From: Planctomycetia bacterium
GTDB taxonomy: Bacteria; Planctomycetota; Planctomycetia; Pirellulales; UBA1268
DNA length: 64,000 bases
Reading direction: 5' to 3'
Assembly: GCA_026401035.1 (NCBI GenBank)
Contig: JAPLNR010000053.1
Span: 89,451-153,450, forward strand
Below the pieces are notes generated by a model. It saw nothing but the letters and a program-made list of their open reading frames with translations, was not told the DNA's origin and did no database searches. The translations under genes and the position numbers were made by a program. This document shows, one piece after another, positions 1 through 60,402 of this stretch. Position 1 is the stretch's first letter, and the number at the start of each line of letters is the position of its first letter.

Positions 1-507
1 GATGCGGCTGGCGGTGACGACGAGCAGGTATTCATCGTGGCGCAGGGCGAGCCGCGGAGCCCAGCGGCGACTGACGACCGCAAACGCCCGGCTGTAGCCA
101 CAACAAAACCAGTTCAGGCCGATCGTGCGGCACTGCCGCATGCCGAGCCGGCGGGCCAGCTGCCGGGCGGCATGACGCGGCCGTTCATTCGCCGCCTGTT
201 CAGGGTCGAGATGTCGCCTTGCTATCGCTGGCGGAATGAAGGAGGGCGACACGAACACGATGCCGCGGCAGTCTGCCAGGTCGCAGCCGGTTTCCCGCTG
301 GAGCCGGCGGACGGCGTGCTGGCCCATCGTCACCTCGTCTTCGAGCGAGATCCCGCGGGCCTCGATCCCGGTGTGATGGGCGAATTTGCGGGGCATCGTT
401 TCGCCAAACCAGTCGTTCTCCAGTTCCCAGGCAGACTGGTGCACTGAGATCGCCGAAATACCGAGGGGCGGATGGTTGTGCGCGTCCATGCGTGGCTCGT
501 GTTTCAT
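1..507 (-). CDS. FabH/KAS III-like condensing enzyme (thiolase fold); 5' part only, gene continues past the left edge
   Basis: Not in the ORF track because the frame is open to the window edge. My minus-strand translation from ATG 507 reads MKHEPRMDAHNHPPLGISAISVHQSAWELENDWFGETMPRKFAHHTGIEARGISLEDEVTMGQHAVRRLQRETGCDLADCRGIVFVSPSF...GLNWFCCGYSRAF. The order TGI-x-R, then a small helix, then a Cys in the N-W-F-C-C-G-Y context matches the N-terminal half of KAS III-type enzymes. Confidence 0.5.
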   Translation of the reverse strand, partial: MKHEPRMDAHNHPPLGISAISVHQSAWELENDWFGETMPRKFAHHTGIEARGISLEDEVTMGQHAVRRLQRETGCDLADCRGIVFVSPSFIPPAIARRHLDPEQAANERPRHAARQLARRLGMRQCRTIGLNWFCCGYSRAFAVVSRRWAPRLALRHDEYLLVVTASRI

Positions 508-975
508 CGGAAACCCATCGAAGCCGCCGCCGGCGGCGGGGCAGGGGACGGGGAGTGTGGCGTTCGACGGCCACCAAGGCCAGCGAGAAATTACCCGAGT
601 ATTCCCCGGCTGAATGCGCTTCCGTGAGGGAGCTTCGCAGCCCCGTCTGTGAGCCGGGAGCACAAAAGTTCTTGTCCCTCGAAGGGGTGTGCCAGGCAGC
701 GGCCTCGTGCGGCACGCTTCCCATCGGCGGAGACGCCAGACACCCGCCAACCGCTCGTTGAGTCATCCCGGTCACCGCGTGTGACCCGGCAAACGATTGC
801 AGAAGTGCCGGTGACTGTTCTATCCTTCGATCTGGCGGCTGCCCGGCACGTGACGGCGGCCCCGCACCGTTCCCGGAAAGAAACTTGCGATGGCAGGATC
901 CGGCGCGGTGCCGGCTCACGGCCATAACATCTTCGAGGTCCGCGCCACCGCGTGATCACGCACCTGCCGCGGTCG

Positions 976-2967
976 CTACGGGTGGAATCCGACGGGCGAC
1001 GCCGTCTGCGCCAGCGCGTTCGTGCGGTAGAGCTCGATGAGCCGCTCAAGCAGTTCGATCTCGCAGCGGCACTGCTCACCTGCCTCGGTGTCGGCGATGC
1101 GCCGCGGTTGCTCTCGCTCGCGGACGACGGTGATGGTCGGGATGATGTCGACTCCGTCGCGGACGGCTGCGTCGATCGAGTCGAAGTGGTGGTGCAGTGC
1201 CAGCAGCGTCCGGTCGGCCTCCTGCACGAGCGTGTAGCCCCGGTCGCCGTAGGCCTCCGAAAACGCGCCGTCGATCGTGATCGCCTTGCCGCTCCGCTTC
1301 AGCGGTGATTCGCCAGCCTCGATTTTCACCGGCACGTGGCCGTTGACGATCAGCCCCTCCACCGGATCGACGCCAAACTCCGCCAGCACCTTCTCGCAGA
1401 ACCACGGCTCGTGGATGAGCGTGAAGTATGGATCCTTCGTCTCGTGGTGCGTCCGCTCGTCGGCAACGAAGCACCGCTCGAACGTCGTGATGCGGTCCTT
1501 GCCAAAGAGCGGCGACCGCGGCCCGCTCCAGAGGTACCAGAGCACATCGAGCTGCTCCGGTCGGCGCTCCTCGAGCGCCCGGATCACGGTGCGCTGGATC
1601 TCGTCGTAGAGTTCCCGGCCACGATGCATGCGGCCCTCTATCGGCATCGGCAAAAACTCTCCCCGTTGATCGGAGGGGACGCAGCCATGGAAGATGAGAT
1701 GCTCATTGCGCCGCAGGGACATCGCTCCATGCCGCACGATCCAGCGCGCGTGCTCCCAGAGCTTTTGGCTGTGGAGAAACGAGTGCCGCATCCGGGCCAG
1801 GCAATCGGCCTCCTCCGGCGAGAGCCGATAGGGGTCGGCCGGATCGATCGTCGGAAACCGCGTGTCGCGGAGCGGATAGACACCGCCGTCGCAGGCCACC
1901 GTGCCGGCCGCGAAGTCGATGCGGTGCAGAAGCCGCCGATCGTCCATGCCCCACTCCGGGTGCCTCGCGATGAGCGGCCCCTCCAGCTTGAACTGCAGGA
2001 TCGCCGCTGCCTTGTGCATCCGGGCGACGAGGTCGTCCGGCCGCAGGCCCGACACCGTCGGCCGGAAAAAGGTGCAGGGATCGCCGGCATAGGCCGTAGC
2101 GGCCAGGTGTTCCAGCGGCGCCGTGGGAATGCTGTAGCCCTCGTCGATCTGGCCAATCCGCCGGTAGCGGAGTGAAATCCGCAGCACGTGGCAGATCAGT
2201 GGCTCGTGGCCGAGGCATGCGCCCAGCCAGGCGACGTCGTGGTTGCCCCAGACGAAGGACACGTTGGGCTGGTGCCGCAGGTAGTCGACCACGCGGTCGC
2301 CCCGCGGCCCCCGGTCCCAGCAGTCGCCGGCGATGATCAGTTCGTGCACGGCAAGATTGCGGACCAGCCGGCACGTGATGTGCACCAGATGCAACGCCCG
2401 ACCGCGCCGTAGCAACTGGTCGACGATCGCGTCGATGAATTCGCGGCCGCGGTCGGCCGTCGGCTCGTGCAGGAGCTCGGCGTAGAGTTCCACGTATTCC
2501 GGCGGGAAGACCCGCAGCGCCCGCTTAAAGCTGTAGCGGGCGGCGAGCACGCGAACGAGCTCGAAGAGGTGCTGCAGCGTCCGCCGCGAGAATTCCCGCA
2601 CCTGCTCCTGGTCGGTCGCCTCGGCTTCGAGCCGCTCCGTGACCGCGGCCGGATAGAAGATGAGCGTGAGGAAGGCCTGAAATTCCTCCGGCGTCAGGCG
2701 GTCGCGAAACAGCCGCTCCACCAGCGGCCGCAACGTGCCCGATGCGTTGTTGATGATGTGGCGGAGCTTGCGGTGCTCGCCATGCACGTCGCTGATGACG
2801 TGGATGGTACCCATCGGCAGGGTGAGGATCGCCGACAGCCGCGCGATCTCGGCATACGCCGCGTCGATGTTGGGGAACTGCCGCGCCAATGGCCTCAGGA
2901 GCACCAGTTCGCGCTGGGTGGGCCGCCCGTCAGACTCATTCTGGCCGGTGCCGGTCGTTGGGTGCAT
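976..2967 (-). CDS. fbp: fructose-1,6-bisphosphatase, class 3 (Bacillus Fbp type)
   Basis: ORF 976..3234 trimmed to Met90 (ATG at 2967), because the upstream 89 codons read through a tRNA fragment. Metallophosphoesterase blocks HVISDVHGE, GDCWDRGP, WGNHD, LIFHGCVP, WYLWSGP..LFGK and VNGHVPV plus a ~660-aa length fit class 3 FBPase. Confidence 0.9.
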   Translation of the reverse strand: MHPTTGTGQNESDGRPTQRELVLLRPLARQFPNIDAAYAEIARLSAILTLPMGTIHVISDVHGEHRKLRHIINNASGTLRPLVERLFRDRLTPEEFQAFLTLIFYPAAVTERLEAEATDQEQVREFSRRTLQHLFELVRVLAARYSFKRALRVFPPEYVELYAELLHEPTADRGREFIDAIVDQLLRRGRALHLVHITCRLVRNLAVHELIIAGDCWDRGPRGDRVVDYLRHQPNVSFVWGNHDVAWLGACLGHEPLICHVLRISLRYRRIGQIDEGYSIPTAPLEHLAATAYAGDPCTFFRPTVSGLRPDDLVARMHKAAAILQFKLEGPLIARHPEWGMDDRRLLHRIDFAAGTVACDGGVYPLRDTRFPTIDPADPYRLSPEEADCLARMRHSFLHSQKLWEHARWIVRHGAMSLRRNEHLIFHGCVPSDQRGEFLPMPIEGRMHRGRELYDEIQRTVIRALEERRPEQLDVLWYLWSGPRSPLFGKDRITTFERCFVADERTHHETKDPYFTLIHEPWFCEKVLAEFGVDPVEGLIVNGHVPVKIEAGESPLKRSGKAITIDGAFSEAYGDRGYTLVQEADRTLLALHHHFDSIDAAVRDGVDIIPTITVVREREQPRRIADTEAGEQCRCEIELLERLIELYRTNALAQTASPVGFHP

Positions 2968-3043
2968 GGGGAGGTCCGACTTGTTGCGGCGACGCGCCGA
3001 GAGACTAACATCCTCCCCGTTTCTAATCCCTACTTTACTAGAG

Positions 3044-3096
3044 TACCGGAGGAGGGACTTGAACCCGCACGCCCTTGCGGGTAACGGATTGTGAGT
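3044..3096 (-). repeat. orphan copy of the 3' half of tRNA-Leu (att-like direct repeat of 5258..5310)
   Basis: 50 of 53 nt are identical to the anticodon-loop-to-discriminator part of the intact tRNA at 5258..5340. There is no matching 5' half (D-arm or acceptor 5' strand), so it cannot fold as a tRNA. Confidence 0.85.
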
Positions 3097-3245
3097 GCGA
3101 ATAGAACCCACAGTCAAGTCGCGCTCGTATCGCGATTGTGCAAATTCCTCGGGAAGGGCGCGTGTGGCTCGGCGCGTGATTCCTGCGCCAAAACGCCTGC
3201 GCCTAACACTTTGCCTAACAGTTTCGGGCCCCACGGGAACCGCCG

Positions 3246-3431
3246 TCAGGCCGCCTGCCGGATGACGTCCAGATAGGCCCTCCAGACCCGCGAGTAGGCG
3301 CAGCCCCAGGCCTCGTCATGGCAGGCGCGGTCGAACTCCACGGGATTGATCCCCGGCGTCTTGGCCAGCCGGTCGAGTGAAAAGTTCCAGGCCAGCGCGT
3401 GCGCCCATTCGTGGCAGAGCACCTCGACGGC
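3246..3431 (-). pseudogene. remnant of an HExxH metallopeptidase-like gene (possibly ImmA/IrrE-like), interrupted by an in-frame TAG
   Basis: My translation gives AVEVLCHEWAHALAWNFSLDRLAKTPGINPVEFDRACHDEAWGCAYSRVWRAYLDVIRQAA*. It is preceded in frame by TAG (3432..3434) and then ...MSIAGTLLAGYRPPPAGPRRAAIQVLLNDEMGEP. There is no usable start codon; it lies inside the tRNA-bounded islet. Confidence 0.3.
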
Positions 3432-3789
3432 CTACGGTTCACCCATTTCATCGTTGAGCAGGACCTGGATTGCTGCGCGACGGGGGCCTGCTGGCGGGGG
3501 GCGGTATCCCGCGAGTAGTGTGCCGGCGATCGACATCCACAGCCTCTGACCCCAGCCCGACGCGAGAAATCCACGAAGCCGCCAGGCGGCCGGACTCGGA
3601 GAGACTCTGCGCCGACGTCAGAAAAACGCCACTGCAGGGGGCAGGGCAGCCGTTCCGGTTGCCGCCAATTGGGTGCCGGGAAACGCCGCACCAGCCGCAC
3701 CATCCGCCCATCAGCTCGAAAATGGCTGCGGACATGCTGGCGGAAGTGCCATTGGCCGGGCTATCCTTAGCGAACCCTAGAAACATGCG

Positions 3790-4005
3790 GTGCTTGCAAT
3801 GGATGCCGTGACTCCCCGATATGTCGTTGATGAACAGCAGGTGCCAACCGACGTGGTGCTTTCGATCGAGCAATGGCACCAGATCGTCGAGGAACTTCAC
3901 GAACTCGCCGATATTCGTGCCTACGACGAAGCAAAGTCGTGCCCACAGGAATCCATATCCCTTGAAAGTCTTGCGCGGAAACTACGGGCCGGGCGGGGAT
4001 CGTGA
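3790..4005 (+). CDS. type II antitoxin (Phd/YefM- or RelB-like) partner of the RelE/ParE toxin
   Basis: 71-aa ORF (GTG 3790, alternative ATG 3799) with an acidic helix ...WHQIVEELHELADIRAYDEAK.... Its stop overlaps the toxin start by 4 nt (GTGA). Confidence 0.7.
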   Translation: MLAMDAVTPRYVVDEQQVPTDVVLSIEQWHQIVEELHELADIRAYDEAKSCPQESISLESLARKLRAGRGS

Positions 4006-4256
4006 AGTACTCGGTCGACGTTCTGCGGTCAGCGCAGAAGCTTCTCGAAAAGCTTTCTGCCGATCAGCAGGACCGAGTGCTCGCTGTACTCGAGAGTCTT
4101 GCCGAGGTCCCGCGGCCCGATGGCTGCAGGAAGCTTTCCGGCAGGGATGCTTGGCGGGTGCGCGTTGGAGACTACCGAGTCATCTACGAGGTTGCTGATG
4201 ACACCCGCCAAGTTACCGTTGTGGTGATTGCCAATCGCAAAGATGCCTATCGTTAG
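4002..4256 (+). CDS. RelE/ParE-family type II toxin
   Basis: 84 aa. The C-terminal block WRVRVGDYRVIYEVADDTRQVTVVVIANRKDAYR is the RelE/ParE signature, and the gene is translationally coupled to the upstream antitoxin. Confidence 0.85.
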   Translation: MKYSVDVLRSAQKLLEKLSADQQDRVLAVLESLAEVPRPDGCRKLSGRDAWRVRVGDYRVIYEVADDTRQVTVVVIANRKDAYR

Positions 4257-4718
4257 CTTCAGGCTACTTGATCCCCGTCAGCCACGCAGCCGCTGCCTGG
4301 CGAGCCGGCGGATGTTCTTCTCGTAGATCTTCCGGCGGTCGGCCTCCGGGATGTCGAGTGAGTCGATCGCAGCGATGATCTCGCGGGACCGTCCAGAGAA
4401 ATCTACCACGACTACCACGCGACCCGCCTCATCCATGCGGCGGCCGACATCAAGGCCTGGTCAGAATGGCGAGCGAGCATGGCCGATCATCTGATCGAGG
4501 GCCAAGTCAAGGAAGGCGACGACGCAGGCAGTTGGCAGGCGCACGAAAGACTTGACAGAGCATGGTTTTCTTCTGGGCCGTTGGCGTCGACCTCCCTCGC
4601 GGCCCTCACCCTCGCCGAGCCGCTCGACCGCATGATGCTCAGAGCAAAGTAATCACGCCTGCTTGCAGGCAATGGCAAATGGCCGGCAACTTTTGATTTC
4701 TTGAGTGCTGGGCACTGG

Positions 4719-4979
4719 TCACGTCGGACCGTAGGCATCCTTGCGGTGGCGGATGACTCGAATCTTGACGATCAACTGCGTGTCGTCGATCGCGTGAATG
4801 ATCCGGTAGTCACCGACTCGAACCCGCCACAGGTCATCGCCACCCCGCAATTTCTTGCAACCAGTCGGTCGTAGCCGCGTGGAAAGCGAGTCGACCTTCG
4901 CAGCGACACGGTCGATGATCTGGTCGGGCAGTGCCTCGAGTTCCTTGACGGCGGACCTTCCGATCCGCACCTCATGCAC
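4719..4979 (-). CDS. RelE/ParE-family type II toxin (second copy)
   Basis: 86 aa with a GTG start. WRVRVGDYRIIHAIDDTQLIVKIRVIRHRKDAY is a paralogue-like match to the toxin at 4002..4256. Confidence 0.85.
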   Translation of the reverse strand: MHEVRIGRSAVKELEALPDQIIDRVAAKVDSLSTRLRPTGCKKLRGGDDLWRVRVGDYRIIHAIDDTQLIVKIRVIRHRKDAYGPT

Positions 4980-5202
4980 GACGACGGCCCTTCTTCAGGC
5001 GGCCGACCTTCTCCAGTCGGGATCGGACCGTCGCCCAACTCTGACTTGGCTCGCGCTCCCGCGACCTGGCGGTGGCAACATCAAGGATGTCTTCCCAAAG
5101 GCCGCTCCCTTGCCGGAGATCGATCATCACGGCGGTCTTGTGACCATGCTCGTCGAACAGGAACTTGACCCCGCGAATCATGAATGAGCCTCCGAGCCGC
5201 AC
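4972..5202 (-). CDS. type II antitoxin partner of the second RelE/ParE toxin
   Basis: 76-aa ORF (alternative start ATG 5181, MIRGVKFLFDEHGHKTAVMIDL...). It overlaps the toxin start by 8 nt. Small size and antitoxin-first order support the call. Confidence 0.65.
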   Translation of the reverse strand: MRLGGSFMIRGVKFLFDEHGHKTAVMIDLRQGSGLWEDILDVATARSREREPSQSWATVRSRLEKVGRLKKGRRRA

Positions 5203-5257
5203 CTGGAAACCGAGCTCTTGATATTATCCGATCGCGACGGGAGGTGTTTTTCAGAAA

Positions 5258-5340
5258 TACCGGAGGAGGGACTTGAACCCACACGCCCTTGCGGGCAACG
5301 GATTTTGAGTCCGTCGCGTCTGCCATTTCGCCACTCCGGC
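5258..5340 (-). tRNA. tRNA-Leu (anticodon CAA), type II with long variable arm
   Basis: The reverse complement reads GCCGGAG TG GCGAAATGGCAGACGC G ACGGA CTCAAAA TCCGT TGCCCGCAAGGGCG .GTGGG TTCAAGT CCCTC CTCCGGT A. This gives a 7-bp acceptor (G1-U72), anticodon loop CU-CAA-AA, a variable stem-loop GCCC/GGGC, a GTTCAAG T-loop and discriminator A. One U-U mismatch occurs in the T stem. Confidence 0.85.
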
Positions 5341-5466
5341 TCGTGAGAGGCCTCGCCGAACCGTCGAGATTAAGCCAGCGGCCGCGGTTTTGCCAGCACT
5401 GCTCTCCGCAGCGGGCGATTGTCCATGGTAGGGTTTTCGACGGAAGTTTTTTCGAGAGGGCGATCC

Positions 5467-6711
5467 ATGCAGGTGCTCGTATTTGAAGATGGCGGCGTCG
5501 ATCGGCTGGGCGTGCTCACGGCCGCACGGCCGGCCTGCGACCTCACGATCGGTGCGGTCACGCTCTGCGAGGCCCTCGGCCATCTCGGCAGCGTGCGGCG
5601 GGTCGTGCGGCCATATCTGGCGCGGCATATCGCGGCCCTCGCCGGTCGCCGCGTCACGCTCTGGGGCGCCGTCGCTCCCGTTGACCATGGAGAGCCGCCG
5701 GCGTCGACGCACGGTGCGATCGCCCTGGTCGTGAACGCCCGCGCGATTCCCAGCCGCACCACCATGCAGACGCTGCGCAGCCTCGTCGAGGCCGGGCACC
5801 GCGGCAGCGTGCGGCAGGGCGCCGACCTGGCGGCAGCCGTGCTGCACCTGACTGCCGATGGCGGGGGGCCTGACGACAGAGCGTGGAACAACCTGCTCGA
5901 GACCGGCTCGACCGCTGCCATCGAGGCGCTCAAGAACGCTGATCTTGATTCCGAACTCGAACTGCTGCACCAACCGCACGACGTGGCCTCCGCCCACGAG
6001 CAGGCAATCACCGGCAGCCTCGCGATGCTGATCGACTCGGGCCGCTTTCATGAGGTACGACCCGGGCTCTTCGTGGCCGAGGGCGCGAAGGTCGCCGAGC
6101 AGGTCGTCGTGCGGCAGGGACCGGTGGTGGTCGATGCCGGCGCGGAGATCGCGCCCTTCGTCTGCCTCGACGGGCCGGTCTTCATCGGCCGTCGGGCGCG
6201 CGTGAACCCGCATGCCTGGATCCGCGCGGCCACGGCGATCGGCGTTGAATGCCGCGCCGGCGGCGAGATCGAGGCGACCGTTATGGAGCCCTTTTCCAAC
6301 AAGCCCCACGATGGCTTTCTCGGCCACAGCCACGTGGGCAGCTGGGTGAACATCGCGGCGGGCACGATCACGAGCAACCTGAAGGCAACGTATGGCCCGA
6401 TCCGTCTGCATACGCCGCTGCCCGACGGCGGCCGGGAAACGATCCACACCGGCAGGCAGTTTCTGGGCGCAATGATCGGCGACTTCGCGAAGACGGCGAT
6501 CAATGCGTCGATCCCCTGCGGGGCCCGGATCGGCGTCGCCGCGACGGTCGGAGGCACGGTGCCCGAGGTGGTGCCCGCCTTTTCCAACGCACTCATCGAC
6601 GGCCACTCGACAGCCGATCAGGCCGCGACGATCCTCGAACGGATGATGGCCCGCCGGGGCCTGACGCTGCTGCCGGCCGACCGGGAACTGCTGGACGAGC
6701 TTGCCACGTAG
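5467..6711 (+). CDS. putative sugar nucleotidyltransferase, GlmU-like, with C-terminal left-handed beta-helix
   Basis: ORF 5419..6711 trimmed to ATG 5467 (MQVLVFEDGGVDRLGVLTAARPACDLTIGAVTL...). The C-terminal third shows hexapeptide-repeat character (GPVVVDAGAEIAPFVCLDGPVFIGRRARVNPHAWI...IGVECRAGGEIE...VGSWVNIAAGTITSN). Confidence 0.6.
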   Translation: MQVLVFEDGGVDRLGVLTAARPACDLTIGAVTLCEALGHLGSVRRVVRPYLARHIAALAGRRVTLWGAVAPVDHGEPPASTHGAIALVVNARAIPSRTTMQTLRSLVEAGHRGSVRQGADLAAAVLHLTADGGGPDDRAWNNLLETGSTAAIEALKNADLDSELELLHQPHDVASAHEQAITGSLAMLIDSGRFHEVRPGLFVAEGAKVAEQVVVRQGPVVVDAGAEIAPFVCLDGPVFIGRRARVNPHAWIRAATAIGVECRAGGEIEATVMEPFSNKPHDGFLGHSHVGSWVNIAAGTITSNLKATYGPIRLHTPLPDGGRETIHTGRQFLGAMIGDFAKTAINASIPCGARIGVAATVGGTVPEVVPAFSNALIDGHSTADQAATILERMMARRGLTLLPADRELLDELAT

Positions 6712-6802
6712 GCCGGCGGCGACGAAACCGGCCATTCCGCTGGGGAACGGAGCGGTCTCCAAGTATTTCGCTTCGGAAGCTTGCGGGCTACGATAGAGAA
6801 CC

Positions 6803-7681
6803 ATGTCACTCACTGATGCCTATAGCAACGGTCGGTTCGGCCTGTCGTTTGAACTGTTTCCGCCCAAGACGCCTGAATCGGCTGCGCTGATGTGGCGGAC
6901 GGTCGACGACCTGATGGCCTTCGAGCCGGCCATGATCACCTGCACCTACGGCGCCGGCGGCTCCACCCGCGGCACCACGCTCGAGGTTCTCAGGGGCGTG
7001 CGGGAGCGGCACAGCCTGCCGGTGGCCAGCCACCTCACCTGCGTGGGCAGTTCCGTCGACGAACTCCGCGACTATCTGCAGGAGGCCATTACCCTGGGAG
7101 TGGCTGCGATCGTGGCCCTCCGCGGCGATCCTCCCAAGGGGGAAACCGAGTTTCGGCAGGCGGCGGGCGGCCTGCGTTATGCATCCGATCTCGTCGCGCT
7201 CATCCGCAGCGAGTTTCCCGCGCTGGGCATCCTCGTCGCCGGCTATCCGGAGACGCATCAGGAGGCGGTGAGCCCCGACGCCGATCTCGAAAACCTGAAA
7301 CGCAAGTGCGATGCCGGCGGCGACGTCGTCGTCACGCAGCTCTTCTACGAAAATGCCGACTTCTTCCGGTTTCGCGACCGCTGCACGGCGCTCGGCATCC
7401 GGCAGCCGATCGTGCCGGGCGTGATGCCCGTGACCAATTACGCACAGATCCGCCGTATCGCCACGCTCTGCAGGGCCAAGCTGCCCGACGCGTTCACGCA
7501 GGCCTTCGAAGCCGCCGGCGACGACGAGGCCGCCCAGTTCGAGGCGGGCGTCGACTTCGCCACCCGGCAGGTGCGGGAACTGCTCGACGCCGGCGTACCG
7601 GGCATCCATTTCTACGTGCTCAACAAGTCGCCGGCGACCGTGCGGGTGCTCGAGCAGGTGGATCTGCAAGGGACGCGCTGA
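6803..7681 (+). CDS. metF: methylenetetrahydrofolate reductase
   Basis: FSFELFPPKT, CTYGAGGSTRGTT, LRGDPP, GYPE.H and VTQLFYE blocks; 292 aa. Confidence 0.9.
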   Translation: MSLTDAYSNGRFGLSFELFPPKTPESAALMWRTVDDLMAFEPAMITCTYGAGGSTRGTTLEVLRGVRERHSLPVASHLTCVGSSVDELRDYLQEAITLGVAAIVALRGDPPKGETEFRQAAGGLRYASDLVALIRSEFPALGILVAGYPETHQEAVSPDADLENLKRKCDAGGDVVVTQLFYENADFFRFRDRCTALGIRQPIVPGVMPVTNYAQIRRIATLCRAKLPDAFTQAFEAAGDDEAAQFEAGVDFATRQVRELLDAGVPGIHFYVLNKSPATVRVLEQVDLQGTR

Positions 7682-7691
7682 GGGCAAGGCC

Positions 7692-7715
7692 GGCGACTCC
7701 CGTTGCCGAGTCGCC
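7692..7715 (+). terminator. hairpin immediately after metF (possible terminator; no U-tract)
   Basis: GGCGACTC-ccgttgcc-GAGTCGCC, a perfect 8-bp stem starting 11 nt after the metF stop. Its 3' arm runs into the palindromic element at 7712. Confidence 0.3.
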
Positions 7716-7837
7716 GGGATCGGCGGAAGCTCGACGAGCATTGGAGATTTCGCTCGGTCGAGCCAGCGCCGCCGCAACATGCCGGTGCGAAATATCCACG
7801 CGAGAAGACTTCTGCCGATCCCGGCGACCAATGCGGG
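7712..7837 (+). repeat. ~125-nt imperfect-palindrome intergenic element, copy A
   Basis: Outer stem 7712-7729 pairs with 7809-7826 (18 bp, one G-U). Inner stem 7743-7753 pairs with 7787-7797 (10 of 11). The conserved tail is ACCAATGCGGG. Homologous copies at 18438, 51990, 12442, 12551 and 44277. Confidence 0.85.
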
Positions 7838-7853
7838 CTATTCGCACGGAGCG

Positions 7854-8390
7854 CTACCGCGGCGGCAGATCGTCATCCATGCTACTGATGTAGCTCCGCA
7901 GCCGTTCGAGCTCGTCGCTGACGTGCCGTAGCTTGAGCATGTTTTCCACCCGCTTCACGAGCTCCACCTTGTTGACCGGCTTGGAGAGGAAGTCGTCGGT
8001 GCCGGCCTCGACGGCCCGCTCGATGTCGCCGAGTTCACCGAGGGCCGTCACCATCAGGATCATGATCGGGCTCGTGGATGGATCGCTCTTGAGCCGCTGG
8101 CAGACCTCAAAGCCGGAGAGCTTCGGCATCATCACGTCGAGCAGGATGACGTCGGGTCGGAAGGCCGCCACCTTGTCGAGCGTGTCACGACCGTCGATGG
8201 CCGTGGCAATTTCACAGTCGATCTCGGCGAGATAGACCTCGAGGAGTTCGCGGTTGGGCTCGTTGTCGTCGGCGATGAGCACGCGGCTCTTGCGGGCGGC
8301 CACTGCTGCGGTGGGCTTGGTCTGGGGCTGGGCGGGGGGCGATTTGGGCATCGGGTCCTCGGTCGCGGCGGCGGCGTTACGGGATTTCAA
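7854..8390 (-). CDS. single-domain response regulator (CheY-like receiver)
   Basis: VLIADDNEPNRELL...PDVILLDVMMPKLSGFEVC..LK......PIMILMVTA...D..RA.EAGTDDFLSKP. An alternative start is Met14 at 8351. Confidence 0.85.
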   Translation of the reverse strand: MKSRNAAAATEDPMPKSPPAQPQTKPTAAVAARKSRVLIADDNEPNRELLEVYLAEIDCEIATAIDGRDTLDKVAAFRPDVILLDVMMPKLSGFEVCQRLKSDPSTSPIMILMVTALGELGDIERAVEAGTDDFLSKPVNKVELVKRVENMLKLRHVSDELERLRSYISSMDDDLPPR

Positions 8391-8925
8391 AGAGCGACTG
8401 GCTCTTCACGATCGCGAGATCGTCGGGAAACGTGTGGAAGGCCTGCACGAGCAGACTCTTGGCCCGGGTTTCGATGTTGATCCAACTGATCGCCCCCAGC
8501 GCCAGACGGCCGCCCGATTCGAAGCGGTGGAACATGCCGTGCTTGATTCCCTCGGCGCAGAGTTCCTGTTGGAATGTCCAAAACACCTCGGGCGCCACCG
8601 CCTCGAGCTGGAAGCAGGTCTGGTAGGAGGCACCACCGCGGCACTCCAGGCGGTCGCTCCGCTCACCGCTGAGCTTGGAGGACAGCAGCCGGCGCTTCTG
8701 GGGCAGCGGCTGGGCGGCGCTGGCCGCCACCTCGGAGAGCGTCAGCCCGTCTTTTCGCCAGGTGACGACGTGGCCGGCGCTCGTGATCGCCACCATCGCC
8801 TGATAGCCACCGCGCTCGATCGACCGTGTTGAGACGATTTCGAAGAGCTCGGGGTGCAGCCCCCGGCCATACAGCTGAAAGACCAACTCGGTGACTTTGG
8901 GGCGAACCGACAGCACTCGTTTCAT
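8377..8925 (-). CDS. conserved hypothetical protein (soluble, ~180 aa)
   Basis: ORF 8377..9015 trimmed to ATG 8925 (MKRVLSVRPKVTELVFQLYGRGLHPELFEI...). It reads like a conserved family of unknown function that I cannot name with certainty. It overlaps the response regulator ORF by 14 nt. Confidence 0.5.
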   Translation of the reverse strand: MKRVLSVRPKVTELVFQLYGRGLHPELFEIVSTRSIERGGYQAMVAITSAGHVVTWRKDGLTLSEVAASAAQPLPQKRRLLSSKLSGERSDRLECRGGASYQTCFQLEAVAPEVFWTFQQELCAEGIKHGMFHRFESGGRLALGAISWINIETRAKSLLVQAFHTFPDDLAIVKSQSLFEIP

Positions 8926-9011
8926 CTCCCGGGGGAAGTCTTGAGTATAAAATCGCCGCCCACGATGCACAAAGCCGAGTCCTGCAGCCAGCACAAACCG
9001 TACCGTGGCGA

Positions 9012-9875
9012 TCACAAGAGCCCGACGAGCATGTCGTATGCGGCATGGGCGCCGGCGGCGATGCCGAAGCCGCGGACCACGAAGAGCGTGGCAAAGAAGA
9101 TGCCGGCCAGAGCGCGAAAGGCGAAACTGTAGAGCTCGAAAGCGTCGCCGAGCGGACCGATGTAATGCGCGGCGCTGAACAGCAGGCTCGTCAGGAGCAC
9201 CGACCAGAGGCGGGCAGGCGTCGCGGAAACCCCGGCCCGCGCGAGCACCCAGATCACGACCGGCAGCAGAATGAGCCTGAAAAGCACCTCTTCATAGAGA
9301 CCGGCGCCACAGTAGCCGATGAAGCGGGTAAAAATCCCCGTCAGGCCGTCCACGATCCCCAGCGGCCAGAGTTGATGCTGCAGCCGCGCCAGGCCCACGA
9401 GCACCCCCGCCCAAAGCAGACATTCCATGACCATGCCCGCGAGCACGGCGGGGCTGAACCGCCAGCGGTCGTGCTCGATGTGGTGCCAGGCCAGCAGTCC
9501 GAGCACCATGAGCACCGGCAGCAGGAAATAGGACCCAAAGCCGAGCCCGTCGAGGAGCTGCCGTAGCCAGACATCGGCACCATTGCGGGGCGATCCGCGG
9601 CCCAGCCAGAGCACCCCGCCTTCGTACGCGAGCACCAAGGGCAGCGTGAACATCAGACTCGTCAGCGGCGTGCGGGAGAGACTCCAATAGGTTTCAAACG
9701 CCTCCGGAATTCGCTCCGCCGCCACGTCGTCGACGGCGTCGGTCGCGTCCGCCTCCGATCCAGACTCCGATCCGGAAAACTCACGGATGAGTTCGTCGGC
9801 TTGCCCGTCAAGACCCTGCGCTGCAGGGCCGGAAAAATCAGGCGTGTCGCGATCGGTGGATGAGGACGATGGCAT
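9012..9875 (-). CDS. CPBP-family intramembrane glutamic endopeptidase (CAAX protease/Abi-like)
   Basis: Motifs LYEEVLFRLILLP, FSAAHYIG and AAGAHAAYD on a multi-TM background. The start is uncertain (Met53 of ORF 9012..10031 chosen). Confidence 0.75.
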   Translation of the reverse strand: MPSSSSTDRDTPDFSGPAAQGLDGQADELIREFSGSESGSEADATDAVDDVAAERIPEAFETYWSLSRTPLTSLMFTLPLVLAYEGGVLWLGRGSPRNGADVWLRQLLDGLGFGSYFLLPVLMVLGLLAWHHIEHDRWRFSPAVLAGMVMECLLWAGVLVGLARLQHQLWPLGIVDGLTGIFTRFIGYCGAGLYEEVLFRLILLPVVIWVLARAGVSATPARLWSVLLTSLLFSAAHYIGPLGDAFELYSFAFRALAGIFFATLFVVRGFGIAAGAHAAYDMLVGLL

Positions 9876-10412
9876 GCCGGGCGGCTCGTGGGCGTTTGTG
9901 GTCAGCGGTACGCGGGCCGCGGAGAGTGCGGATTTACCGACTGTTTTCGTGGAAATGCGCCGGATTGTGCAAGGCAAATGGCATCGCGGCCGCAACGGCG
10001 CTGCGACCGGGGATGCTGGCGCTGCTGGCAAAAAAGTTTTTCAAAAAAGCACATGCGTTTTTGTTCGGTGTTTTATGGACGTGGCACTCCGGTCGCCGCG
10101 CGCATGGCTCCAGAGTCCTTGACAACTTCGACTCCCTCGGAAGAATGACGCCCGGTGGTCGAGTCGATGGTCGGGAAACGATTCCCGTCGTCCTCGCCGC
10201 GAAAAATCTCGCATCAGCAGCGACAACAAATACAAGGAGTCTGACTCGGATATTGGGGGGCGACGACTTGAGGGATCGAAAGTCGACGACCTTGGTCGTG
10301 GCCTGGATGTCCCCCCCGCTTTCGAGTGTTTGCCTGCGGGCGTCAGTAGCTGAGAGTTGCCTCGGCGGGGTGGCGGCCCCGTAGAATCAAGGCGAATACG
10401 GGGCACTACTCA

Positions 10413-11543
10413 ATGGCACGATGCCTGATCGGATGCGGTTCGAACCAGGGCCGGCGGCGGGAATACCTCGACCGGGCCCTCGAACTTTTGCGCTACATGC
10501 CGGGCGTGACCGTGCTGGCCGTCAGTCGGCCGCTGGAGACGCGGCCCATCGGCGGCCCGGCCGGCCAGGCACCATTTCTCAACGGTGCCTGTCTCCTTGA
10601 AACCGACCTCGGCCCGCACGAGGTGCTGGGCATGCTGAACGCGGTCGAGAATACGCTGCACCGCGAACGGACCGAACGGTGGGGGCCGCGAACGATCGAC
10701 CTCGATCTGCTGCTCTACGACGATCTCGTGCTCGACACCTCGAGCCTGACGTTGCCGCATCCCCGCATGACCACGCGGCGGTTCGTGCTCGAGCCCTGCG
10801 CGGAAATTGCGGGCGACGCCATGCATCCGCGGGCCGGCTGCACGGTACGGGCGCTGCTCGACAACATCTCGCAGCCGCATCCGCACGTGGCGATCGTCGG
10901 CGTGCCGGGAGCCGGCGCTCCGGAGGTGGCCTCCGTAGTCGCCGATGCGATGCTCGCCCGGCTGGTGCGCAATCCAGCGCCGCTCACGCCACAGCTCTTC
11001 GAGCCGCCCGCAGGCGACGCCGTGACAGACGCCGACACCGCGCGACTCGAAGCGGTCTGGCGGCAGTCGCTGGCCGCGCGGGCCCGGCCGCTCGAGGCTG
11101 CCGGATGGCCGGATGATCCACACGGCACCGTGGCCGACTACTGGCTGGAAACCCAGCGGCTCGCCGCCGAAGAGATCCTGCCGGCTGCATCCCGCGCGGC
11201 ATTCGCCGCCCTGTTCTCGACACATGCCGCCACCACCGTCGCGCCCCACGTCGTGGTGCTCCTGCACGTGCAGCCGGAAGTTTTGGAGGAACGAATCGCG
11301 TTTCGTGCCCGCCGGCCCGCGCCGCACTCCGACATCTTCGCGGCGCTGACGCCGACGGCCGTGTGCCCATCGACGCAGGAATCGGTGCGGCTGCTGATGC
11401 GGCTCCAAGATCGTCTCGCCTGCCGCCTGCGGACGGCCGATCCGGCCTGCGGCACGCGACCCAAAGCCACTGTCGTCATCGATGGCGGCGATCTGGGGCA
11501 GGCCGCCCTCGATGCCGTGGCCGCCGTCGAGGCGATGGCGTGA
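10413..11543 (+). CDS. folK: HPPK (2-amino-4-hydroxy-6-hydroxymethyldihydropteridine diphosphokinase) fused to a ~210-aa C-terminal P-loop-kinase-like domain with a degenerate Walker A
   Basis: The N-terminal 160 aa read IGCGSNQG...VSRPLETRPIGGP.Q..FLN....ETDL.P.E.L......E..L.RER..RWGPRTIDLDLLLY....L.....LTLPHPRM..R.FVL.P. The remainder contains VAIVGVPGAGAPEV, which has no Lys-Ser/Thr. Confidence 0.85.
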   Translation: MARCLIGCGSNQGRRREYLDRALELLRYMPGVTVLAVSRPLETRPIGGPAGQAPFLNGACLLETDLGPHEVLGMLNAVENTLHRERTERWGPRTIDLDLLLYDDLVLDTSSLTLPHPRMTTRRFVLEPCAEIAGDAMHPRAGCTVRALLDNISQPHPHVAIVGVPGAGAPEVASVVADAMLARLVRNPAPLTPQLFEPPAGDAVTDADTARLEAVWRQSLAARARPLEAAGWPDDPHGTVADYWLETQRLAAEEILPAASRAAFAALFSTHAATTVAPHVVVLLHVQPEVLEERIAFRARRPAPHSDIFAALTPTAVCPSTQESVRLLMRLQDRLACRLRTADPACGTRPKATVVIDGGDLGQAALDAVAAVEAMA

Positions 11544-11551
11544 CGACCGAC

Positions 11552-12418
11552 ATGAACACGCCCAATCCCGCACTGCCGGAGATCGAGCGCGACCCGGCGC
11601 GGATGCGGGAGAGGATTGCCGCGGCGCGGGCCGCGGGCCGCCGCGTGGGCTTCGTGCCGACGATGGGGGCCTTGCACGCGGGGCATGCGAGCCTCGCGGC
11701 GCGGGCCCGGGCCGAATGCGACGACGTGGCCGTGTCGATCTTCGTCAACCCGACGCAGTTTGCACCCCACGAGGATTTCGGCCGCTACCCGCGGACGCTC
11801 GCGACGGATTGCCAGCTGCTCGGGGAGCAGGGCGTGCGGTGGGTGTTTGCGCCGGAGGTGGCGGCGATGTATCCGCCGGGCGCCGCGACGCGGGTCGTTG
11901 TGCAGGGCCCCGCCGATCGCTTCGAGGGCGCGTCGCGGCCGGGGCATTTCGACGGCGTGGCGACGGTTGTCTGCCGGCTTTTTCAGGCGGTACCGGCCGG
12001 TGCCGCCTATTTCGGCGCCAAGGACTGGCAGCAGACGGTCGTCGTGAAGCGGATGGTTCGCGACCTCGGCCTGCCGATCGGCATCATTGTCTGCCCAACC
12101 GTTCGCGAGCCCGACGGCCTGGCGATGAGCTCGCGGAATGCCTATCTCTCCCCCGCCGAGCGCCTCCGCGCCGTCGCGCTCTCCGCCGGCCTCGCACAGG
12201 CGGGCCGACTCTGGTCGGAGGGCACCGGTGTGCCCGCGATCGAGGCGGCACTGCGGCAGTCGTTGGCGGCCCACGATGTCGCCTGCGACTACGCCGCCGT
12301 GGTCGATCCGGAGTCGCTTGAGCCCCTCGCCGACGCGAGCGGCCCCGCCATCGCGCTCGTGGCCGGCCGACTCGGCTCGACGCGGCTCATCGACAATCGC
12401 GAACTGCCTCGGCGCTGA
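11552..12418 (+). CDS. panC: pantoate--beta-alanine ligase
   Basis: ORF 11363..12418 trimmed to ATG 11552 (GTG 11540 also possible). PTMGALHAGH, SIFVNPTQF, RPGHFDGVATVV, YFGAKDWQQ and MSSRN blocks. Confidence 0.9.
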   Translation: MNTPNPALPEIERDPARMRERIAAARAAGRRVGFVPTMGALHAGHASLAARARAECDDVAVSIFVNPTQFAPHEDFGRYPRTLATDCQLLGEQGVRWVFAPEVAAMYPPGAATRVVVQGPADRFEGASRPGHFDGVATVVCRLFQAVPAGAAYFGAKDWQQTVVVKRMVRDLGLPIGIIVCPTVREPDGLAMSSRNAYLSPAERLRAVALSAGLAQAGRLWSEGTGVPAIEAALRQSLAAHDVACDYAAVVDPESLEPLADASGPAIALVAGRLGSTRLIDNRELPRR

Positions 12419-12430
12419 CCGCAACTGCCG

Positions 12431-12647
12431 TCGGAGGCGAAGGGATCGGCGGAAGCTCGACGAGCGTCGGCATATCTTTGCCGCGCGGAGGAGACTTCTG
12501 CCGTCCCAGGCCGGTTTGAGCGCGAGCGGTACGCCACCATCGGAGGCGAAGGGATCGGCGGAAGGTCGACGAGCGTCGGCATATCCTTGCCGCGCGGAGG
12601 AGACTTCTGCCGTCCCGAGCCGGTTTGAGCGCGAGCGGTACGCCACC
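12431..12647 (+). repeat. tandem duplication (2 x 109 nt), each unit holding a short form of the palindromic element
   Basis: 12431-12539 versus 12540-12647 differ at 4 positions. The short-form cores are at 12442-12507 and 12551-12616 (GGGATCGGCGGAAG...CTTCTGCCGTCCC). Confidence 0.9.
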
Positions 12648-12678
12648 GGTTCCTGGCCGTTTGTCCTACAATTGCGGC

Positions 12679-13785
12679 ATGCTCTCCACGCTCTTCCACA
12701 TTCCCGCGCGGCTCACCCTCGGAGACGCCTCGTTGCCGCTCTTCGGCTGGGGACTGCTTCTGGCCATCTGGGGAGTCGCGGGCGGGCTCGGTCTGGCCTG
12801 GGCCGCCTGGCGTGGGAGCCTGCGGGGACATTGCAGCGCCGGGCTTCGCGATGCCGTCGTCACGTTCGGCCTGCCGTTCGCGATCTCCGGGGCGATGATC
12901 CTCTGGTTGCTGCCGTCGCTCGATGACGGGCAGGGGGTGCCCATCCGCGGCTATGGACTCATGCTGCTGCTGGCGGCTGCGGCGGGCACGTGGCTTTCGA
13001 TCGTGCGCGGCCGGGCGCTGGGTTTCGATGCCGACACCATTCTCGCGCTCGGCATGGAGGTGTTTCTCTGGGGGATCGTCGGCGCGCGGATCTTCTATGT
13101 GATCGAGTACCACGAGCAATTCTTCCCACCCGGCAGGAGCCTGCTCGCAGGCCTGCCCGACGTGCTCAACATCGCCGCCGGCGGGCTCGTCGTTTTTGGC
13201 TCGCTGCCGACCGCCGCCCTGGCCGCCTGGCGGTTCGCGCGGCGGCGGGGGCTGCCGCTCCTGCGGCTGGCCGACTGCATCGCGCCGGGGCTGCTTGTCG
13301 GTCTGGCGATCGGCCGCCTCGGCTGTTTTTTGAACGGCTGCTGCTACGGCGGCCCATGTGAACTGCCGTGGGCCGTGCGGTTTCCGCCGGACAGCCCGCC
13401 GTGGCTCGATCAGGCAGCCCGCGGACTCCTGCCGGCGGGCGAGGCGACGCACCCGCGGCCCTGGAGCCTGCCGGTTCATCCGGCGCAGCTGTATGCCGCG
13501 ATCGACGCGGCGCTGCTTGCCTGGCTGGCGATCTGCGCGACGCCGCTGGCCCGCCGTGCCGGCACCGTGTTTGCCATCGTGCTCACGCTCCATCCGCTCT
13601 CGCGGCTGCTCCTCGAGGGGATCCGCGTCGATGAGCCGCCAGCCCTGGGCACGCCGCTGTCGATTTCGCAGCTGGTGTCGCTCGTGCTTCTGGCACTGGC
13701 GGCGGCCCTCTGGTGCTGGCTGTCAGCACAGCCCCCGGAAAGGCTAGACTGCTCTCCTTCTCCCTTGGACAAGCCGGCCGCATGA
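12679..13785 (+). CDS. lgt: prolipoprotein diacylglyceryl transferase
   Basis: ORF 12625..13785 trimmed to ATG 12679, since the first 18 codons lie in the repeat. GYGLMLL, GARIFYV, GGLVVFGS, GRLGCFLNGCCYG, W.V.FP and HPAQLY blocks. Confidence 0.9.
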   Translation: MLSTLFHIPARLTLGDASLPLFGWGLLLAIWGVAGGLGLAWAAWRGSLRGHCSAGLRDAVVTFGLPFAISGAMILWLLPSLDDGQGVPIRGYGLMLLLAAAAGTWLSIVRGRALGFDADTILALGMEVFLWGIVGARIFYVIEYHEQFFPPGRSLLAGLPDVLNIAAGGLVVFGSLPTAALAAWRFARRRGLPLLRLADCIAPGLLVGLAIGRLGCFLNGCCYGGPCELPWAVRFPPDSPPWLDQAARGLLPAGEATHPRPWSLPVHPAQLYAAIDAALLAWLAICATPLARRAGTVFAIVLTLHPLSRLLLEGIRVDEPPALGTPLSISQLVSLVLLALAAALWCWLSAQPPERLDCSPSPLDKPAA

Positions 13786-60334: not shown

Positions 60335-60402
60335 GCCATGAGCCGTTCTCGGGGACGATGAAAAATTGTCGACGGCCACCGCACCCGCGTCAATCTTCTC
60401 CC

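Follow-up and report, generated by a model that had tools for sequence, protein, structure and literature searches.

The stretch of DNA analysed here, hereafter the window, comprises 64,000 nt of the genome of a freshwater planctomycete (assembly GCA_026401035.1, contig JAPLNR010000053.1, positions 89,451-153,450 of the forward strand). Between fbp and an intact tRNA-Leu(CAA) gene lies an islet with two toxin-antitoxin (TA) operons, gene fragments and non-coding DNA, bounded by two copies of the 3' part of that tRNA (Table 1). A preliminary description of this DNA placed an 83-nt tRNA-Leu on the minus strand at 5258-5340, where it is called by both ARAGORN and Rfam, and noted that the left copy lacks a 5' half, and no tRNA is called there by either program. 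The 53-nt direct repeat recorded earlier (50 of 53 nt identical) was recomputed with the same result and extends to 52 identical positions out of 56, with the discriminator base exactly at one end and the 5' edge of the anticodon loop at the other. A 37-mer from the repeat core occurs at two sites in the 64 kb, these being the two repeat copies, against none expected in shuffled sequences, and the many scattered copies that a generic tRNA-derived repeat would leave are not observed in the window. The locus thus contains the target tRNA's 3' part as a direct repeat, one copy lying inside the intact gene. In the sister strain L001 the fragment has 54 of 56 positions identical, so two of the substitutions in the window's left copy are recent decay. 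The adjacency of the tRNA-Leu and an NTP-transferase gene is kept in the related loci L097-L102 and L123.

Table 1. Coordinates of the features of the tRNA-Leu(CAA) islet and its boundaries.
Feature	Position (nt)	Strand	Remarks
Distal att core (attR): displaced tRNA-Leu(CAA) 3' part, anticodon loop to discriminator base	3044-3099	-	
Conserved non-coding arm of the element family (putative P' arm)	3100-3245 (146 nt)		
Pseudogene remnant of the family's terminal HExxH gene	3246-3465	-	
Filler DNA, no credible gene	3466-3789		No Pfam match in any frame
Antitoxin 1, 68-71 aa	3790-4005	+	Weak RelB-like Pfam match, 24.4 bits, below cut-off
Toxin 1, RelE/ParE superfamily, 84 aa	4002-4256	+	ParE_toxin 38.8 bits, E = 1.5e-9
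3' fragment of a gene (earlier 'amidohydrolase tail'), cut at junction	4278-4384	-	No HMM match
Last ~88 codons of BlaR1-like Peptidase_M56 gene	4385-4652	+	Alignment with L097
Toxin 2, RelE/ParE superfamily, 86 aa	4719-4979	-	ParE_toxin 42.9 bits, E = 7.5e-11
Antitoxin 2, 69-76 aa depending on start codon	4972-5202	-	No family match
Spacer, antitoxin 2 to tRNA 3' end, 55 nt	5203-5257		Without arm motif
Proximal att core (attL): 3' part of intact tRNA-Leu(CAA)	5258-5313	-	Within tRNA
Intact tRNA-Leu(CAA)	5258-5340	-	ARAGORN and Rfam (54.9 bits)

The base composition of the DNA between the repeats (3100-5257) is atypical, with a GC content of 61.3% as compared to 66.8% for the window and 66.6% and 67.6% for the flanks. 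This value is 2.2 SD low and the second lowest of any equal-sized stretch within the window. The drop estimated by hand in the preliminary description (57-58% against about 70%) is real, although the contrast was overstated. More telling is the GC3 of the TA genes, which is 57-74% compared to 84-87% in fbp, the NTP-transferase gene and metF. The islet thus differs from its host in both GC and GC3, as expected of an integrative element.

Both toxins exceed the Pfam ParE_toxin cut-off of 23 bits and are 50% identical to each other, while each is preceded by a small antitoxin gene overlapping the toxin gene, by 4 nt in pair 1 and 8 nt in pair 2. On these features the two operons, recognised earlier as RelE/ParE-type pairs, are predicted to be type II toxin-antitoxin systems of this type; toxin 1 falls below the cut-off of NCBIfam RelE_StbE. 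The 57-codon ORF at 4479-4652, previously listed among the debris, belongs to a BlaR1-like Peptidase_M56 gene, of which it is the 3' tail, and the 52-codon ORF on the minus strand at 4278-4436, likened to an amidohydrolase tail, has no Pfam match and its first 17 codons are merely antisense to the BlaR1-like tail. The filler DNA at 3466-3789 has no match in any related locus, and the larger segment 3466-4384, TA pair 1 included, has none in any member of the element family described below, with tblastx revealing no other remnants of family genes. A six-frame Pfam scan of 3044-5260 gives no Phage_integrase or other recombinase match, in agreement with the earlier description of the islet as integrase-less. 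No copy of GCCTAACA is present near the tRNA on the tRNA side of the islet.

The left end of the islet (3046-3465) shows 85-89% identity (blastn) to the ends of family members on at least 25 metagenome contigs. When metagenomes were scanned for the 24-nt tandem motif of the arm, 30 contigs were identified, of which 25 combine the 3' fragment of tRNA-Leu with this 146-nt arm and the HExxH gene, two start inside the arm and one is an internally deleted copy. Other genomes thus carry homologous element ends at this att site, and the proposal of a decayed element at a tRNA 3' end is strengthened by a left end homologous to the conserved end of widespread tRNA-Leu-associated elements. The DNA outside the tRNA fragment falls into 16 classes, several of which are similar to the tRNA-proximal arm of L123. 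The arm contains the tandem 12-mers GCCTAACACTTT and GCCTAACAGTTT at 3201-3224, with the signature GCCTAACAsTTT occurring twice, and this motif is unique within the window. In every locus it lies at a fixed, gapless offset of 147 nt from where the 37-nt core probe begins, and over 45 locus pairs identity is 93.3% in the arm, as compared to 84.0% at the third codon positions of the adjacent gene. The two 12-bp direct repeats most likely represent arm-type integrase binding sites.

Adjacent to the arm are the C-terminal 61 codons (3246-3431) of the HExxH gene, with an upstream in-frame TAG at 3432-3434 (CTA on the plus strand), as previously described, and nucleotide homology of this remnant to the family stops near 3465. 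The intact protein is approximately 130-160 aa in length and has 368 homologues (E <= 1e-5) in a 90%-identity protein database. An intact homologue (P0241) gives two weak Pfam matches, to SprT-like (18.4 bits, cut-off 25.6) and M78 (13.3 bits, cut-off 22), and no match to the HExxH protein was found in PDB, PHROG or NCBIfam. One database source labels a homologue 'ImmA (M78 family)'. Neither arm motif is present in the viral collection, where relatives of the HExxH protein are only 26-52% identical and lie away from element ends. At one end of the element family, the small HExxH gene is divergent from a gene coding for an HTH protein.

Other members of the family add to this picture. In L123 the fragment and an intact tRNA are located 4.6 kb apart on one contig. 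Tyrosine integrases had been suggested for a search near other tRNA-Leu genes, and a tyrosine-recombinase C-terminal remnant (HDFRRAF...LMRHETIETTLSYY) does adjoin the intact tRNA of L123; it aligns to positions 127-170 of 172 in Pfam Phage_integrase with E = 0.012, below the cut-off, and is the sole integrase remnant of the family, no full-length gene having been recovered. Beside this remnant, ~80-90 nt from the L123 tRNA, GCGCCTAACAGT occurs twice, the same 8-mer as in the arm repeat. Contigs with intact HExxH genes stop 0.4-2.2 kb into the element, and a six-frame Pfam scan of the element side of L131 (4.9 kb) reveals a PD-(D/E)XK nuclease and a weak HTH match, with no integrase. L138-L141 have this HExxH gene too, and their arm, recognisably homologous, is joined to the 3' half of another tRNA (anticodon loop CTCATAA). 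Two tRNA fragments lie 818 nt apart in L108, which would indicate successive insertions, while in L124 BlaI/BlaR1-like genes come after the 2.1-kb end module of the family. Toxin genes are also present in other decayed islets at tRNA-Leu, namely a ParE pair in L097 and a HepT-like gene in L098, and the islet of L108 contains a weak PemK match with a small ORF upstream. No account of tRNA-associated elements in Planctomycetes was found in a literature search.

The closest comparison is provided by L097, which is 98.2% identical to window positions 4382-13141. Its islet is 3.5 kb in length with a perfect 53-55-nt repeat, and encodes a full 712-aa BlaR1-like protein and a BlaI-like repressor, both intact, as well as TA pair 2, in which toxin 2 differs by four amino acids and antitoxin 2 is identical. 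Homology to L097 ends at 4382-4385 within the window's islet, and this left edge of the BlaR1-like tail is, from the alignment, a deletion or recombination junction. Unlike the single simple islet envisaged at first, the islet is thus composite, joined internally at 4382-4385, and has only its right part in common with L097. The left ends of the two islets likewise have no one simple history in common, because L097 has other genes in its outer flank, one Cache-like and one for a solute-binding protein, and its arm has diverged, showing 72-75% identity to the metagenome loci. No homologue of this solute-binding protein exceeds 88% identity, and the homologues occur in unrelated contexts, without a tRNA or an amidohydrolase gene. 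Extension of the L097 left flank was aimed at a 'large deletion' model, and its outcome speaks neither for nor against it.

An empty site, which the preliminary description proposed to look for, was found neither among 80 fbp loci nor in metagenomes. No tRNA-Leu is present in the 33 closest of the 80 fetched fbp loci, which were scanned for tRNAs; blastn of the tRNA against all fetched loci gives no match among the 80 fbp loci apart from L001, and by blastn and tblastn the shared neighbourhood is limited to fbp itself. An exact-match scan of the JGI metagenomes for the left junction between the fbp flank and the fragment gave 0 matches. Position 3043 joined directly to the full tRNA would read ...CTAGAG followed by TACCGG...GAGTCCGTCGCG. 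The more distant L099-L102 contain an MscS gene directly after tRNA-Leu and no islet, an empty-looking site with a different neighbour. The islet was earlier held to begin 77 nt upstream of fbp and to supply part of its promoter region; since the standard model makes the distal tRNA fragment original host DNA, islet DNA would start ~125-135 nt upstream instead.

The region 3044-5313 is very probably the decayed, now immobile remnant of at least one integrative element of the tyrosine-integrase type. The element or elements would have recombined with tRNA-Leu(CAA) at a core spanning the anticodon loop to the 3' end, such that integration rebuilt the tRNA (5258-5340) and the displaced 3' part (3044-3099) stayed at the far end. 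The 420 nt at 3046-3465 represent the conserved far end of an element family common in freshwater planctomycetes, comprising the non-coding arm with its two 12-bp direct repeats and the tail of the small HExxH gene. Later deletion or replacement would have taken away the integrase together with the tRNA-proximal arm and almost every element gene, and this reshaping would have joined unrelated DNA to the BlaR1-like gene tail at 4382-4385, while the two intact TA operons outlasted the decay. The recombination mechanism and the number and order of insertion events are reconstructed from these comparisons, and the islet may have persisted through its TA modules, any stabilising role of which is putative, with support that is indirect and limited to the toxin genes kept in the islets of L097, L098 and L108.

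A single insertion between tRNA-Leu and fbp followed by decay in place, with everything between the repeats representing leftovers of one element, is possible though we consider it unlikely. Only one repeat pair occurs in the window, the left end belongs to the element family and the gene order in L124 demonstrates that BlaI/BlaR1-like genes can be part of such an element. This reading is, however, difficult to reconcile with L097, which shares the right 0.9 kb at 98% but differs in arm and outer flank, with the lack of any family match for 3466-4384 and its TA pair 1, and with the occurrence of tandem att scars in the family. A broader proposal, which is speculative and rather doubtful, would be that the 3' side of tRNA-Leu(CAA) is an accretion hotspot in the clade of this planctomycete, that an undescribed family defined by the GCCTAACA arm and the HExxH/HTH module can switch tRNA, and that its decayed copies are TA-only mini-islets between att cores, shuffled or re-mobilised in trans in a somewhat cassette-like manner.

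For the islet of the window itself, mobilisation in trans (CIME-like), with excision via the two att cores by an integrase encoded elsewhere, is improbable. Direct repeats are kept at both ends, the arm 12-mers are intact, and mini-islets containing only toxin-type genes between tRNA fragments recur. The cores, however, differ inside the anticodon loop, the presumed crossover region (ATTGTGAGT versus ATTTTGAGT, with T/G at 3091 versus 5305), a difference shared by the sister strain L001. Furthermore, the tRNA side lacks the arm motif, and all contigs found of the window's species carry the islet. The identical overlap and the two arms of a trans-mobilisable islet are thus not present, and, because there is no integrase, no tRNA-proximal arm and no identity of the cores in the anticodon loop, the islet looks fixed.

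Also quite improbable is a role for the fragment and arm in the host, where they would be maintained as a structured RNA or as a promoter reading outward into fbp and not as a recombination site. Conservation of the arm beyond third codon positions would be consistent with such a function, as would a sigma-70-like hexamer pair (TTGACT-18-CACAAT, 3117-3088) which straddles the fragment/islet junction and faces fbp; across the family its -35 hexamer is conserved, and so is the position corresponding to the -10. One such pair is, however, no better than chance (0.6 expected), the fold of the arm alignment has no covariation support (covariation term +0.62; compensatory pairs 2/63), and an Rfam scan that included the arm found nothing but tRNA. 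The presence of the same arm on another tRNA type in L138-L141 is a better fit to an att arm.

An assembly chimera, in which a left part (fbp, fragment and HExxH remnant) and a right part (TA pairs and tRNA) from different strains or loci were joined at a shared 30-mer, is very improbable. Independent assemblies are 100% identical to the window, with the ERR153022xx and SRR206986xx samples covering 1-3769 and the ERR153022xx samples alone covering 3740-7741. In several samples, independent short-read contigs stop at 3765/3769 or start at 3740/3742, which indicates an assembly-graph branch at 3740-3769, and the left (to 3769) and right (from 3740) parts are linked by the window's own assembly and by 30-nt overlaps of short-read contigs. 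In L097, moreover, the right part adjoins other DNA. Against a chimera, the contigs on either side all match the window at 100%, and the 30 nt by which their ends overlap is exactly k-1, the value that a true path should give when a variant exists elsewhere in the population. Independent confirmation of fbp, the fragment and the arm comes from L001. A local event without integration, in which slippage or segmental duplication copied the tRNA 3' half, has nothing but the repeat itself in its favour and is effectively refuted by the metagenome loci, where the fragment invariably comes with one and the same foreign arm and HExxH gene (at least 25 loci); the end of the repeat at the anticodon loop and the integrase remnant in L123 also speak against it.

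As the decayed remnant of integrative DNA, the tRNA-associated islet with its TA modules is of a well-known kind and an ordinary genomic scar. In Escherichia coli, islands are found at leuX, itself a tRNA-Leu(CAA) gene. Williams (2002) reportedly surveyed P4-type and related integrases with crossover in the anticodon loop at tRNA genes. The window resembles tyrosine-integrase tRNA islands in its regenerated tRNA, in the displaced 3' part forming a distal repeat with identity from the anticodon loop to the 3' end, and in its atypical composition, and its relatives do so in the short motif near both ends in one of them, as for arm-type sites, and in the use of different tRNAs by related elements. 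Unlike these islands, the window has no integrase and its relative only a remnant, with no full-length family member recovered, and the host is a planctomycete and the conserved terminal gene codes for an uncharacterised HExxH protein.

CIMEs are integrase-less, att-flanked elements derived from ICESt1/ICESt3 in Streptococcus thermophilus. The islet likewise consists of integrase-less DNA between att-type repeats beside the target gene, and L108 shows tandem att-scar accretion, but in the window the att cores differ in the presumed overlap, one arm is missing and there is no sign of mobilisation. TA modules stabilise mobile islands, examples being mosAT in SXT and the TA cassettes found in superintegrons. 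Similarly, nothing but the type II RelE/ParE-type operons is still intact among the genes of the decaying islet, and toxin-type genes recur in other decayed islets at tRNA-Leu, although stabilisation is here putative and the antitoxins have no confident family assignment. ImmR and ImmA are a pair of regulators encoded by ICEBs1, an element of Bacillus subtilis whose integration site is a tRNA-Leu gene. The small HExxH gene divergent from an HTH gene at the end of a tRNA-Leu element is reminiscent of this pair, as a lead only, while the M78 and SprT-like matches are below their cut-offs, the integrase is at the opposite end and the window's copy is a pseudogene.

The islet accounts for a small atypical stretch of this planctomycete genome and corrects the reading of its 'debris', while the region upstream of fbp, having been rearranged, should be interpreted with caution. 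The succession of a tRNA-Leu 3' half, the arm with GCCTAACAsTTT twice and the HExxH gene provides a signature for finding the family in freshwater Planctomycetes.

The intact minus-strand tRNA-Leu of the preliminary description was found by ARAGORN and Rfam alike, and the direct repeat of its 3' part is 50/53 identical over the 53-nt span originally proposed. Read directly, the repeat begins exactly at the discriminator base, and its perfect identity stops at the 5' edge of the anticodon loop, with two of the next three bases matching. Within the 64 kb, a 37-mer of the repeat core occurs only in the two repeat copies, with none expected in shuffles. The two RelE/ParE-type toxin-antitoxin (TA) pairs reported in the islet are likewise upheld, both toxins (50% identical to one another) being above the ParE_toxin cut-off, with a toxin score under the cut-off for the narrower model RelE_StbE, and each being overlapped by an upstream small gene. 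No recombinase of any kind was detected in six-frame Pfam scans of 3044-5260, in keeping with an integrase-less islet. The low GC content attributed to the islet is a real contrast, but only about half as large as first estimated: 61.3% across 3100-5257 versus 66.8% in the window and 66.6% and 67.6% in the flanks, which is 2.2 SD under the mean, and lower values occur in just one other same-size stretch (60-62 kb). The GC3 of the four TA genes is 57-74%, versus 84-87% for fbp, metF and the NTP-transferase gene. Within the window, GC falls lowest at 60300-62400 (57-58%), a stretch that contains a putative low-GC membrane-protein gene (61334-62338) and two ORFs (60358-61155 and 60533-60898) that look fragmented and are candidate IS91-family transposases, with motifs (CPSCNGR... 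and FLHRFGSALNHHVHLH) typical of that family.

Features of the tRNA-Leu(CAA) islet and its fbp neighbour (window coordinates)
Feature	Position	Strand	Evidence
fbp (class 3 FBPase)	start 2967	- (same strand as tRNA)	Pfam FBPase_2, E = 5e-209
tRNA 3' fragment, direct repeat	3044-3099 vs 5258-5313	same orientation	52/56 identical
Antitoxin 1	3790-4005	+	small gene overlapping toxin 1 from upstream; weak RelB-like match
Toxin 1	4002-4256	+	Pfam ParE_toxin above cut-off
Toxin 2	4719-4979	-	Pfam ParE_toxin above cut-off
Antitoxin 2	4972-5202	-	small gene overlapping toxin 2 from upstream; no family match
tRNA-Leu(CAA)	5258-5340	-	ARAGORN + Rfam, 54.9 bits; sole tRNA of window

The right part of the islet is shared with the contig of a close relative (L097), which is 98.2% identical to the window from 4382 to 13141 and encodes the same tRNA, a toxin 2 with four substitutions and an identical antitoxin 2. 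Beyond TA pair 2, L097 contains a full 712-aa Peptidase_M56 (BlaR1-like) gene and a BlaI-like repressor gene, and past these a tRNA fragment that matches the tRNA perfectly over 53-55 nt. It follows from this alignment that the 57-codon ORF at 4479-4652, previously considered debris, forms the 3' tail of the BlaR1-like gene, that the 52-codon ORF runs antisense to this tail over its first 17 codons, and that a junction is present at 4382-4385, where the identity ends. On its outer side, the L097 fragment is flanked by genes for a Cache-like protein and a solute-binding protein rather than by fbp. The two loci share the right 0.9 kb of the islet at 98% identity, whereas the arms and outer flanks differ, a mosaic for which at least two insertions, then deletion or recombination between arrays, is the likeliest origin. 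The segment 3466-4384, including TA pair 1, had no match in any of the loci compared.

The left ends of the window and L097 can be aligned without gaps, with two tandem copies of GCCTAACAsTTT at equal distance from the core; in the window these 12-mers are found at 3201-3224 and at no other place. A metagenome scan with the 24-mer yielded 30 contigs, 25 of which contain, at fixed spacing, a tRNA-Leu 3' fragment, the same 146-nt non-coding arm (3100-3245 in the window) and the stop codon of a HExxH gene. Two more start within the arm, one (L132) is a copy with an internal deletion, situated 1.3 kb away from an intact tRNA-Leu, and two (L109 and L111) are AT-rich and otherwise unrelated. The latter carry the exact 24-nt motif GCCTAACACTTTGCCTAACACTTT (L109 388-550; L111 1636-1659), and L109 also has a complete tRNA-Leu(CAA) whose 5' end is ~55 nt away from it; related elements of other phyla may therefore use this motif. 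Window positions 3046-3465 are 85-89% identical to the family loci, and 16 classes are distinguished in the sequence on the outer side of the fragment; the family data rule out a non-integrative duplication as the source of the repeat. In a comparison of ten loci whose HExxH gene is intact, the mean pairwise identity is 98.7% for the tRNA fragment, 93.3% for the arm and 94.4%, 96.7% and 84.0% for codon positions 1, 2 and 3 of the HExxH gene. The arm being more conserved than the third codon position, these values show purifying selection on the HExxH gene and constraint on the non-coding arm. Constraint of this kind could reflect a structured RNA, a reading that covariation does not support. 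The intact HExxH protein (~130-160 aa) has 368 homologues (E <= 1e-5) in a 90%-identity protein database and sub-threshold SprT-like and M78 matches. Many family loci retain a ~2.1-kb module in which the arm and HExxH gene are accompanied by a divergent gene of 236-252 aa, whose HTH matches are weak, and by a ~120-aa gene. In some loci, a PD-(D/E)XK nuclease gene comes after this module.

In the relative L123, the fragment and intact tRNA are 4.6 kb apart, the NTP-transferase gene lies past the tRNA as it does in the window, and the tRNA is adjoined by a ~80-codon remnant (...SAHDFRRAFG...LMRHETIETTLSYYVG...) matching the last 44 positions of Pfam Phage_integrase under the cut-off (E = 0.012). 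Two copies of GCGCCTAACAGT occur between this integrase-like remnant and the tRNA. In lambda-type systems, the arm-type sites of heterobivalent tyrosine integrases take the form of a short motif near both ends, which the short motif near both L123 ends appears to resemble. Four further loci (L138-L141) contain the HExxH gene of the family together with an arm that is recognisably homologous (CTGTTAGCAAAACTGTTAGCAAA ... CGTTCCCGAGGAATTCGCA ... CGCGATACGA). In these, the arm (e.g. L140 1846-2040) adjoins the 3' half of another tRNA, with the anticodon loop CTCATAA and an implied anticodon CAU, suggesting a related element that has a different tRNA as its target. Related integrases whose targets have changed are expected to leave such a pattern, a common arm on differing tRNA cores. 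In L108 (reverse-complement, ~729-1600), two tRNA-Leu 3' fragments 818 nt apart enclose just a small antitoxin-like ORF and a PemK/MazF-like toxin ORF (Pfam E = 0.0028, under cut-off), forming a mini-islet of toxin-antitoxin-type genes only, within a tandem array of att scars. These double fragments, together with outer flanks of several fragments that resemble the tRNA-proximal arm of L123, indicate tandem accretion.

The window copy is itself dead, as its integrase is lost, no arm motif is present on its tRNA side (where the gap between the tRNA and antitoxin 2 is only 55 nt), its HExxH gene is a fragment broken by a stop and its two cores differ within the anticodon loop (ATTGTGAGT vs ATTTTGAGT), as they also do in the sister strain. 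At other anticodon-loop sites the overlap region is the loop; if this applies here, the core heterology would block excision. Mobilisation of the islet in trans is unlikely, given the heterologous cores and the missing arm.

The sister strain, a same-species MAG (L001), is 99% identical to the window over 908-3291 and includes fbp, the tRNA fragment and adjoining DNA, but departs from it at 3285/3286, where the end of an IS3-family element takes over. This element (L001 1-164; OrfA start MPRGKKFTAEQIIGKLREAEV) sits inside the HExxH remnant, and short-read contigs of SRR20698643/53 stop at 3317/3323, which fits the same insertion polymorphism. The L001 fragment matches the tRNA at 54/56 positions, so that two of the four mismatches in the window fragment represent recent decay; those at 3091 and 3097 are common to both strains. 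On the 3' side of fbp, L001 (2548-4370) has ~1.4 kb and ~0.2 kb more DNA than the window (608-908). Similarities of 51-67 nt (76-80%) connect three places, namely the spacer that separates the Cache-like gene of L097 from its solute-binding-protein gene (1154-1263), a site downstream of fbp (window ~767-832) and the terminus of the IS3-like element (L001 122-172), and may represent a solo inverted repeat or miniature derivative. Short-read contigs match the window at 100%, those of ERR153022xx and SRR206986xx samples covering 1-3769 and those of ERR153022xx only covering 3740-5324 and 5296-7741. Contigs from several samples end at 3765/3769 or start at 3740/3742, with overlaps of 30 nt, marking an assembly-graph branch caused by a variant strain or by a repeat located elsewhere in the population. 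The window thus represents a genuine locus, with a small doubt only on the join at 3740-3769.

The left repeat lies 77 nt from the fbp start, and the fbp promoter had been proposed to be partly islet-derived from this point. Since the distal fragment is host DNA in the standard integration model, element DNA would instead start at ~3092-3100, ~125-135 nt upstream. A sigma-70-like pair (TTGACT-18-CACAAT; 3117-3088, minus strand) spans the arm/fragment junction and faces fbp, and its -35 hexamer and corresponding -10 position (CAAAAT) are kept across the family. With one promoter-like match versus 0.6 expected, and a sigma-70 consensus that may not be that of planctomycetes, the pair is no more than chance gives and is not evidence for an fbp promoter. 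No empty fbp-tRNA site was found in the relative loci or metagenomes searched. The downstream neighbour of tRNA-Leu(CAA) has changed repeatedly, as an MscS gene directly follows the tRNA in four relatives (L099-L102) and a HepT-like toxin gene (9361-9765) stands between the MscS gene and the tRNA in L098. The NTP-transferases of these five relatives share ~77% protein identity (~80% at the DNA level) with that of the window (78% for L098). The HepT-like gene, beside which no tRNA fragment is detectable in L098, adds a further toxin gene to this hotspot.

The observation of a decayed integrative islet at tRNA-Leu, and the main conclusion drawn from it, were right, and a decayed tRNA-integrated remnant is an already known kind of feature. 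A literature search found no published description of a tRNA-Leu(CAA)-integrating element family in freshwater planctomycetes. The islet is a composite, fixed remnant of such an element, whose family is recognisable in many freshwater planctomycete contigs.
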